Source: Escherichia coli
Lineage (GTDB): Bacteria > Pseudomonadota > Gammaproteobacteria > Enterobacterales > Enterobacteriaceae
Reading direction: 5' to 3' (one strand)
NCBI RefSeq assembly: GCF_003334255.1
Contig: NZ_QOWU01000188.1
Length of the DNA stretch: 780 bases
In this document: positions 1-753 of the stretch, piece after piece
Numbering within the stretch: position 1 is the stretch's first letter
Layout of the letters: every line of letters starts with the position of its first letter
Notes under the pieces: generated by a model
What the model was told of the DNA's origin: nothing
What the model saw: only the letters and a program-made list of their open reading frames with translations
The model's database searches: none
Translations under genes and position numbers: made by a program

Positions 1-331
1 CAAGAAACGAGGGCAGGGCGCGAAGTTCTGCCATGGCTTCCGATACCACCGTGGGCGGATTCTCGCGTTTGTGCTTCGCCAGTTTTTCCAGTCTGACCCG
101 ACGCTCTTCGTCGTGGTGAAGATACGAATTAATTCGCTTGCCTTCGTCTGTGTTTGTCAGGAAGGAGACGGTTTCTTCATCCAGTCTGGCATCAATGCGA
201 ATGTCCTCGTTGATGTAGCTCTGAATGGCCTGGCGTAATGCGGTTGGTTGTGCTCTGCCGAACGTTTCAGGATCGATAACCGGTAGCGGTGCGTTCCACG
301 GGTACGCCAGCTGTGCATTGCGGTCACTCAT
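1..331 (-). CDS. Hypothetical protein, N-terminal part only (at least 110 aa: MSDRNAQLAYPWNAPLPVIDPETFGRAQPTALRQAIQSYINEDIRIDARLDEETVSFLTNTDEGKRINSYLHHDEERRVRLEKLAKHKRENPPTVVSEAMAELRALPSFL...); 3' end lies beyond the left window edge
   Basis: Hand translation of the minus strand from the ATG at 331..329 gives an uninterrupted frame of 110 codons to position 1. It is absent from the ORF track because it has no stop in the window. GGGGAG Shine-Dalgarno at 345..340 with an 8-nt spacer. The start overlaps the stop of the upstream ORF (ATGAGTGA, 331..324). The in-frame upstream stop is at 433..431, and the only other in-frame candidate start (GTG at 400..398) has no Shine-Dalgarno motif. Confidence 0.7.
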   Translation of the reverse strand, partial: MSDRNAQLAYPWNAPLPVIDPETFGRAQPTALRQAIQSYINEDIRIDARLDEETVSFLTNTDEGKRINSYLHHDEERRVRLEKLAKHKRENPPTVVSEAMAELRALPSFL

Positions 332-743
332 GCGTCGTACTCCCCGCCAGTGACCTCCTGAAACGCCCGCGGTACAGCACGAGAAGGCGCTGGTATTCAC
401 CGATAAAGTCTTCTGCGGTGTATATGCCTTTCACGGCCACGCTGTGGGTTGTCATTTCCAGAACCAGTGCCATCTCTGACGATGACCAACTGATGGCGGT
501 ACTGTCGGTGCCGTTGATGTGAAATAAACCAAAGCCATCACCGTCACCTTTCACGTCCACGCGGTAACGACCGTCAACGGTGAAGGAGAAATCCCCGTAT
601 GTGGTGATGCTGCGGGCGGCCTGTTTACAGGCGCGGCGGTAGTAGTCGTGCCAGTTGTTCAGGCGGGAAGCCAGCAGGGGATCCACCGCCCACATCCAGT
701 TAAAAAAGTCCTGAATATCTGAAAGTCCCTTAACGCTCTTCAT
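324..743 (-). CDS. Hypothetical protein, 139 aa (MKSVKGLSDIQDFFNWMW...RRSLAGSTTHE); function unknown
   Basis: Complete ORF from the supplied track, ATG at 743..741 and TGA stop at 326..324. GGAGG Shine-Dalgarno at 753..749 with a 5-nt spacer before the ATG. Codon usage is enterobacterial-like (CTG, CGC, GGT, GAC, AAA preferred). The antisense frame is low-complexity and R/S/T-rich, consistent with this strand being the coding one. The same frame stays open upstream to the window edge at 780, so a start further upstream cannot be excluded. Confidence 0.78.
   Translation of the reverse strand: MKSVKGLSDIQDFFNWMWAVDPLLASRLNNWHDYYRRACKQAARSITTYGDFSFTVDGRYRVDVKGDGDGFGLFHINGTDSTAISWSSSEMALVLEMTTHSVAVKGIYTAEDFIGEYQRLLVLYRGRFRRSLAGSTTHE
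340..345 (-). promoter_or_regulatory. Ribosome-binding site (GGGGAG) for the ORF starting at 331, embedded in the 3' end of the upstream ORF
   Basis: Minus-strand sequence reads CGGGGAGTACGACGCATGAGTGA, placing GGGGAG 8 nt upstream of the ATG, inside the last codons of the 743..324 ORF. Confidence 0.55.
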
Positions 744-748
744 GAGAA

Positions 749-753
749 CCTCC
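749..753 (-). promoter_or_regulatory. Ribosome-binding site (GGAGG) for the ORF starting at 743
   Basis: Minus-strand sequence reads CCGGAGGTTCTCATG, placing GGAGG 5 nt upstream of the ATG. Confidence 0.6.

Follow-up and report, generated by a model that had tools for sequence, protein, structure and literature searches.

An 8-nt stop/start overlap ahead of the replication endonuclease gene of a P2-like Escherichia coli prophage: a conserved start, a rare deletion allele and probable translational coupling

At one gene junction in Escherichia coli, the stop codon of a small upstream gene and the start codon of a replication endonuclease gene are contained in a single octamer, and the Shine-Dalgarno (SD) motif of the second gene lies inside the first. 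Such an arrangement raises the question of whether the overlap is a conserved device by which terminating ribosomes re-initiate on the downstream gene, or a by-product of mutation next to a start site maintained for its own sake. In terms of geometry, the window, i.e., the whole stretch of DNA analysed here (780 nt), presents a textbook case of a -8 overlap in which the SD is internal; this kind of junction is already known and both genes are present in the public annotation. The account developed below holds that the downstream gene, gpA, has a conserved SD/ATG start, that the -8 overlap is rare and was made by a deletion, and that translation of gpA is probably coupled to that of the upstream ORF; we put the probability of this account as a whole at about 85%.

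A gene junction in a P2-like prophage

Both genes are read from the minus strand of the window, where the following features delimit the junction (coordinates are those of the window; negative spacings are overlaps and positive spacings are gaps):

749..753, minus strand: GGAGG SD of the upstream ORF, 5 nt before its ATG at 743..741; -10.2 kcal/mol
324..743, minus strand: upstream ORF, 139 aa, a frameshifted allele; phrog_3237 (function unknown); exact protein WP_054518652.1
340..345, minus strand: GGGGAG SD for gpA, with an 8-nt spacer, within the upstream gene; the unshifted upstream frame encodes a conserved Gly-Glu here
329..331, minus strand: ATG start of gpA, invariant in 27/27 sequences; RefSeq start; phrog_91 match from residue 4
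328..330, minus strand: TGA of ATGA, at which the upstream ORF stops in the closest relatives (-4 overlap) but which the window allele reads past in another frame
324..326, minus strand: TGA ending the upstream ORF in the window allele; -8 overlap, ATGAGTGA
324-331, minus strand: double-TGA site, also present in phage PhiR44_2 (L010) at 898
1..331, minus strand: first 110 codons of the gpA-family replication endonuclease gene (PF05840, phrog_91), the remainder lying beyond the window

The octamer ATGAGTGA at 331..324 on the minus strand is the shared stop/start of both ORFs. Respective to the -8 (ATGNNTGA) class of junctions, the co-directional stop and start are found inside one octamer and the SD of the downstream gene is embedded in the 3' end of the upstream gene; the geometry itself is not conserved among orthologues, being present in 2/27. 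In ATGAGTGA, a TGA occurs in both non-gpA frames, such that any upstream frame ends at most 8 nt from the ATG. The second TGA (Ser-Asp, AGT GAC) is confined to the closest relatives, with ATGAGCGA, ATGAGCCA and others elsewhere, and therefore looks fortuitous.

Among 5,426 complete E. coli genomes, 65 match the window at 80-99.6% identity, on the chromosome every time, and these loci are annotated as a 'hypothetical protein' followed by a 'replication endonuclease'. The neighbouring genes are those of a P2-like prophage, namely a derepression protein, a Dam methylase, a 3'-5' exonuclease, an SSB, a portal and a terminase. The window falls within the early operon (early/replication region) of such a P2-like prophage (Peduoviridae) of E. 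coli, where it spans the junction from a small upstream gene to gpA. As neither the window DNA (blastn, distant mode) nor the upstream protein (tblastn) found a match in the phage collection, the lineage of the window has been met only in the prophage state; only the gpA N-terminus retrieves phages, and its nearest counterparts there (P88-like Xuanwuvirus among others) share about 35% identity in alignments that begin at residue 6-12. For the downstream ORF, phrog_91 ('nicking at origin of replication') matches the full-length orthologue L001:6451-8961 over residues 4-826 (E=3e-244), the 331 nt that this orthologue has in common with the window being identical but for one base (window 124), and PF05840 (Phage_GPA) is recorded on the gpA gene of L002, which carries the allele of the window. 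By homology, the downstream ORF is a P2 gpA-type replication endonuclease; the catalytic HUH and tyrosine motifs and the internal ori nick site of this type fall outside the 780 nt. No NCBIfam match was obtained for any of the three proteins tested and no Rfam match in the window at E <= 1. On the plus strand, opposite to the genes, two terminator-like hairpins with T tails occur at window 430-448 and 50-67, which is at chance level (2 found vs 0.8 +/- 1.0 by chance).

The upstream protein is confined to Escherichia and Shigella and matches only phrog_3237, with no Pfam record and no NCBIfam match. For its unshifted form, the AlphaFold2 model (mean pLDDT 81.9) predicts two helices, a 4-stranded sheet and two helices, with a confident C-terminal helix at residues 110-132. 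Since the frameshift in the window allele starts at residue 126, the last two turns of this predicted helix and the flexible tail are rewritten, including positions that hardly vary among family members. Neither the sequence nor the fold of the upstream protein gave a significant match in the PDB, and the top Foldseek matches of its model in BFVD are DUF5405 proteins (E = 0.024, TM 0.63-0.66 on target). This predicted fold is suggestive, and only suggestive, that the upstream protein may be a remote structural relative of P2 Orf83 (DUF5405); as hhalign gives only 12% probability for the pair, remote positional homology is possible but unproven. In public annotation, WP_054518652.1 stands as an ordinary hypothetical protein and not as a frameshifted allele, while the UniRef entry A0A0Q3IC01_ECOLX names its unshifted twin 'Inositol monophosphatase 1', which looks like an annotation error because no search performed here supports the name.

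The gpA start codon and the deletion upstream of it

The start of gpA at ATG 331..329 is strongly supported. The ATG is identical in 27/27 related sequences representing 11 distinct junction haplotypes, it is the RefSeq start of the replication endonuclease in every record inspected, and it is preceded in all 27 sequences by an SD at 8-nt spacing, either GGGGAG or, in the most divergent clade, GGAGAG. When every 9-mer of the minus strand was scored against the 16S 3' end, the best-scoring candidate starts were ATG-743 (-10.2 kcal/mol) and ATG-331 (-7.6 kcal/mol), and a match of -7.5 kcal/mol or lower at the right distance is available to only 4.8% of minus-strand positions. One of these energies, -7.5 kcal/mol, is that of GTG-327, 4 bases after the ATG, off the same GGGGAG. 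Given that GGGGAG also codes for a conserved Gly-Glu, part of its conservation may reflect protein coding and not the SD. In the window as well as in phage 186 and PhiR44_2, a PWNAP motif is located 7-10 residues past the gpA start. The sequence-only reading had placed the ribosome-binding site of the downstream ORF at this GGGGAG, within the upstream gene, and had preferred the start at 331 over an upstream GTG; both proposals are borne out, and the coordinates it gave for the ATG (331..329), the TGA (326..324), the GGGGAG (345..340) and the GTG (400..398) are all correct on the minus strand. In some relatives of the -4 clade (L003, L004), an in-frame GTG is found 9 nt upstream of the gpA ATG (GGGGAGTGCGACGCATG), which is unlikely to be used as it abuts the SD with no spacer.

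Four further features of the upstream gene bear on the origin of the overlap and on longer forms of gpA:

397..400, minus strand: GTGA, in which GTG 400..398 overlaps TGA 399..397
367..368, minus strand: site of a 1-nt deletion; CCGCGCGGCG in relatives, CCGCG-GGCG in the window, the missing C lying between 368 and 367 (L001:6414)
327..368, minus strand: end of the upstream ORF after the frameshift (codons 126-139, GRFRRSLAGSTTHE), where the conserved tail would be AAFQ.(A/V)T(A/G)GE
354..359, minus strand: AGGAGG, which has the best anti-SD energy of the window (-11 kcal/mol) but lies 22 nt from the ATG; not conserved

The closest relative, NZ_CP058571, is 99.6% identical to the window and comprises 781 nt vs the 780 nt of the window, and its RefSeq annotation shows a 4-nt overlap, not an 8-nt one. 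The 8-nt overlap results from this 1-nt deletion, which moves the upstream stop to the next TGA (326..324), the last 14 codons being shifted so that the upstream tail changes from ...YRAAFQEVTGGEYDA to ...YRGRFRRSLAGSTTHE. Elsewhere in the family, the tail YRAAFQ.(A/V)T(A/G)GE is kept in 20/20 other members aligned. A net additional base relative to the window is found in 60/60 of the E. coli matches listed and the extra base is present in all 10 of the metagenome contigs that match one or other allele; 932 contigs carry the unshifted twin protein vs 2 for WP_054518652.1, and a 24-mer of the deletion allele had no match in the GTDB species-representative genomes. Judged from these alignments, the 8-nt overlap is an ordinary, rare by-product of a one-base deletion and not a conserved design. 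Comparison of orthologues, which the sequence-only reading had put forward as a check on both elements, thus upholds the ATG (27/27) and not the overlap (2/27).

The prospect that the missing base is a sequencing or assembly error, with the real DNA having the 4-nt overlap ATGA, has to be weighed together with the longer gpA products that only the deletion would allow. An error would agree with the great rarity of the allele (2 contigs vs 932), with its absence from the 60 listed complete E. coli matches and the 10 metagenome contigs, and with the shortness of the known carrier, a draft contig of 4,256 bp. Indel errors usually affect homopolymer runs. The site, GCGCGG -> GCGGG, has no such run, at least two non-identical sequences carry the deletion, i.e., the window and L002 (CYUC01000103.1), which differ by a SNP at window 124, and the protein has two separate GenBank accessions, CUK20498.1 and RCQ31618.1. 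As L002 shares the deletion yet differs by a SNP, and as the site is not a homopolymer, the deletion allele is probably real and an error appears improbable. Starting from a genuine deletion, gpA could in principle begin at GTG 400..398 and be 23 residues longer, this codon being in frame with the ATG in the window, with an open frame between them and the preceding in-frame stop TGA at 433..431. The GTG is, however, devoid of an SD (-1.0 kcal/mol), RefSeq uses the ATG everywhere, and the GTG falls in the gpA frame only because of the deletion: in several relatives it is replaced by GGC or GCT, and where it is kept the gpA frame is closed at -69 by the overlapping TGA (G-TGA-A), so that the extension is possible only in the deletion allele. 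A start at this GTG has next to no chance of being the true one.

The motif AGGAGG at 359..354 was considered as an SD for gpA and discarded, since it stands 22 nt from the ATG with no start codon at a suitable distance, and relatives have GGCGG, GGTGG or GAAGG in its place. Only with the deletion does it become a pair of adjacent rare Arg codons (R129 R130) in the upstream frame, and the gpA frame, which is +1 from the upstream frame, is open from AGGAGG to the ATG. Tandem AGG-AGG is said to have been found by Spanjaard and van Duin in 1988 to cause high-level ribosomal frameshifting in E. coli, reportedly in the +1 direction. It is conceivable on the reading frames, and very improbable, that some ribosomes would slip +1 at this site in the deletion allele and yield an upstream::gpA fusion in which about 138 residues precede the normal N-terminus of gpA. 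An accidental deletion would then, if this were true, have given rise to a new, fused version of a replication initiator that acts in cis.

History of the junction

Across the 27 sequences, three spacings between the upstream stop and the gpA ATG are encountered, with counts that are not unbiased frequencies since the pattern used for the metagenome scan was specific to the -4 clade:

+5 spacing (GGG GAG TAA nnnnn ATG): 11/27 sequences, including the most divergent clade (55% protein identity)
-4 spacing (ATGA): 14/27 sequences, the close relatives of the window
-8 spacing (ATGAGTGA): 2/27 sequences, only the window and L002

The simplest order of events is +5 -> -4 -> -8. The ancestral and widespread state is GGG-GAG-TAA followed by a 5-nt spacer; in one sub-clade, the TAA was lost (to TAC or TGC) and the ORF extended by four codons to ATGA; from this -4 form, the window allele arose when a single C was lost 37 nt ahead of the ATG, shifting the last 14 upstream codons into a frame that happens to end at the next TGA, i.e., in ATGAGTGA. 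In the phase of the window, an ATG start allows no overlap shorter than 8 nt. Throughout, the SD and ATG form a module fixed across the lineage while the upstream stop shifted position. This history fits the neutral model of Fonseca et al. (2013, PMC3887535), in which overlaps originate when an upstream gene is lengthened at its 3' end. As in that model, the +5 -> -4 step, where the TAA is lost and the next in-frame stop is used, follows the commonest route; unlike in the model, the -4 -> -8 step is an indel in the body of the upstream gene and not a point mutation of the stop codon (Fonseca et al., 2013, PMC3887535).

A single SD/ATG module appears to tolerate an upstream stop at +5, -4 and -8, and across Peduoviridae the range extends from -11 to +6. 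Such tolerance is in line with current views, in which two genes need only lie close together to be coupled and overlaps originate as an upstream stop is neutrally lost or displaced. The lineage offers a natural +5 / -4 / -8 allelic series around a fixed SD and ATG, useful for relating stop position to coupling. The case also indicates that the reading of a single sequence can take a mutational accident for a design feature. Beyond annotation it matters little: the gpA start is fixed for the prophage lineage and the GTG alternative ruled out, and the upstream gene of the window is a frameshifted allele with a C-terminal helix altered according to the model, which automated annotation treats as normal.

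Translation of gpA and comparison with known systems

In the proposed mechanism, gpA would be translated from ATG 331..329 via the conserved GGGGAG 8 nt upstream, and its translation would probably be coupled to that of the upstream ORF, by analogy with orf84/A of phage 186. A ribosome terminating at 326..324 would have its P site about 2 nt beyond the ATG, with the SD some 10 nt upstream of it, and a short backward move would suffice for a restart at the ATG with the SD still in reach. SD-driven initiation by fresh 30S subunits would probably add to this, and would be the sole route if there were no coupling. On the analogy with tested systems, substantial coupling of gpA translation is probable, whereas re-initiation by the terminating ribosome as the main route to gpA is a more tentative proposition, with a little less than an even chance. 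The earlier view that the sequence implies re-initiation was too strong: the same SD and ATG occur behind a 5-nt spacer and a 4-nt overlap, and the mechanism of coupling itself, whether RNA unfolding or ribosome re-use, is described in a 2025 review as 'not firmly established' (PMC12548453).

What would remain without coupling is a gpA translated independently, free 30S subunits binding GGGGAG and starting at ATG 331, the overlap being functionally inconsequential. The moderately strong SD (-7.6 kcal/mol) at ideal spacing agrees with it, as does the occurrence of the same module in the non-overlapping +5 arrangement in 11/27 relatives. The stability of the 120-nt junction RNA is no better than that of shuffled controls (z = -0.53), so that no stable local structure masks the SD and no block to de novo initiation at this fairly good SD is visible; the same value argues against an RNA-unmasking mechanism, and a hairpin masking the gpA SD was dropped as a candidate. 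Among five overlapping pairs tested in E. coli, one, bioBF, showed de novo initiation (PMC6728339), which also weakens the claim that re-initiation is implied. Against independence, 13/14 tested overlapping pairs were strictly coupled in the same study, where removal of the SD reduced reinitiation in 4/5 E. coli pairs (PMC6728339), and spacings from -8 to +6 nt are the range linked to termination-reinitiation (Huber et al., 2023, PMC10666635). Moreover, the A protein of phage 186 is reported to need translation of the upstream orf84, the curated record stating that 'translation to end of orf84 appears necessary for translation of A protein', and gpA in Peduoviridae is always at most about 11 nt from the preceding stop. 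Independent translation of gpA is therefore rather unlikely, and probable coupling to the upstream ORF is the reading retained.

The proximity of gpA to the preceding gene is seen in P2, 186, P88, PhiR44_2, SEN8 and a Klebsiella phage, all within -11 to +6 nt:

P2: -11
SEN8: -10
186: -4
PhiR44_2: -4
Klebsiella phi14.1: -4
P88: +6

For this phage family there is an earlier report of gene A being coupled to the ORF before it, namely in orf84/A of phage 186 (Eganvirus ev186, NC_001317). Like the window, phage 186 is P2-like, the start of A (rolling-circle replicase) overlaps the stop of a preceding non-essential ORF, and the A protein has the N-terminal PWNAP motif. The overlap is -4 (ATGA) in 186 vs -8 in the window, the upstream gene of 186 is a PAPS-reductase-like ORF unrelated to that of the window, and, unlike in the window, there is no obvious GGAG-type SD upstream of the ATG of A. 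Phage 186 further possesses a terminator, tM1, about 85-112 nt inside A (L022 4745-4857), which is 'expected' to stop transcription when A is untranslated. As no tM1-like minus-strand terminator is present in the first 330 nt of gpA in the window, the arrangement of 186 is not fully reproduced here.

With the family prototype, phage P2 (NC_001895), the window shares an A gene overlapping a preceding small ORF, orf83, at the same operon position; the overlap in P2 is -11 with a TAA stop, and P2 was not among the tblastn matches of the gpA N-terminus at 1e-5, being too diverged to align. The general -8 ATGNNTGA class has the same geometry as the window, an SD being commonly embedded in the upstream gene, and in 1,695 prokaryotic species only the spacings -4 and -1 are commoner than -8 (Huber et al., 2023, PMC10666635; PMC12548453). 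Unlike the arrangement of the general class, the -8 of the window is a recent and rare allele, which derives from a frameshifting deletion and is no conserved arrangement.
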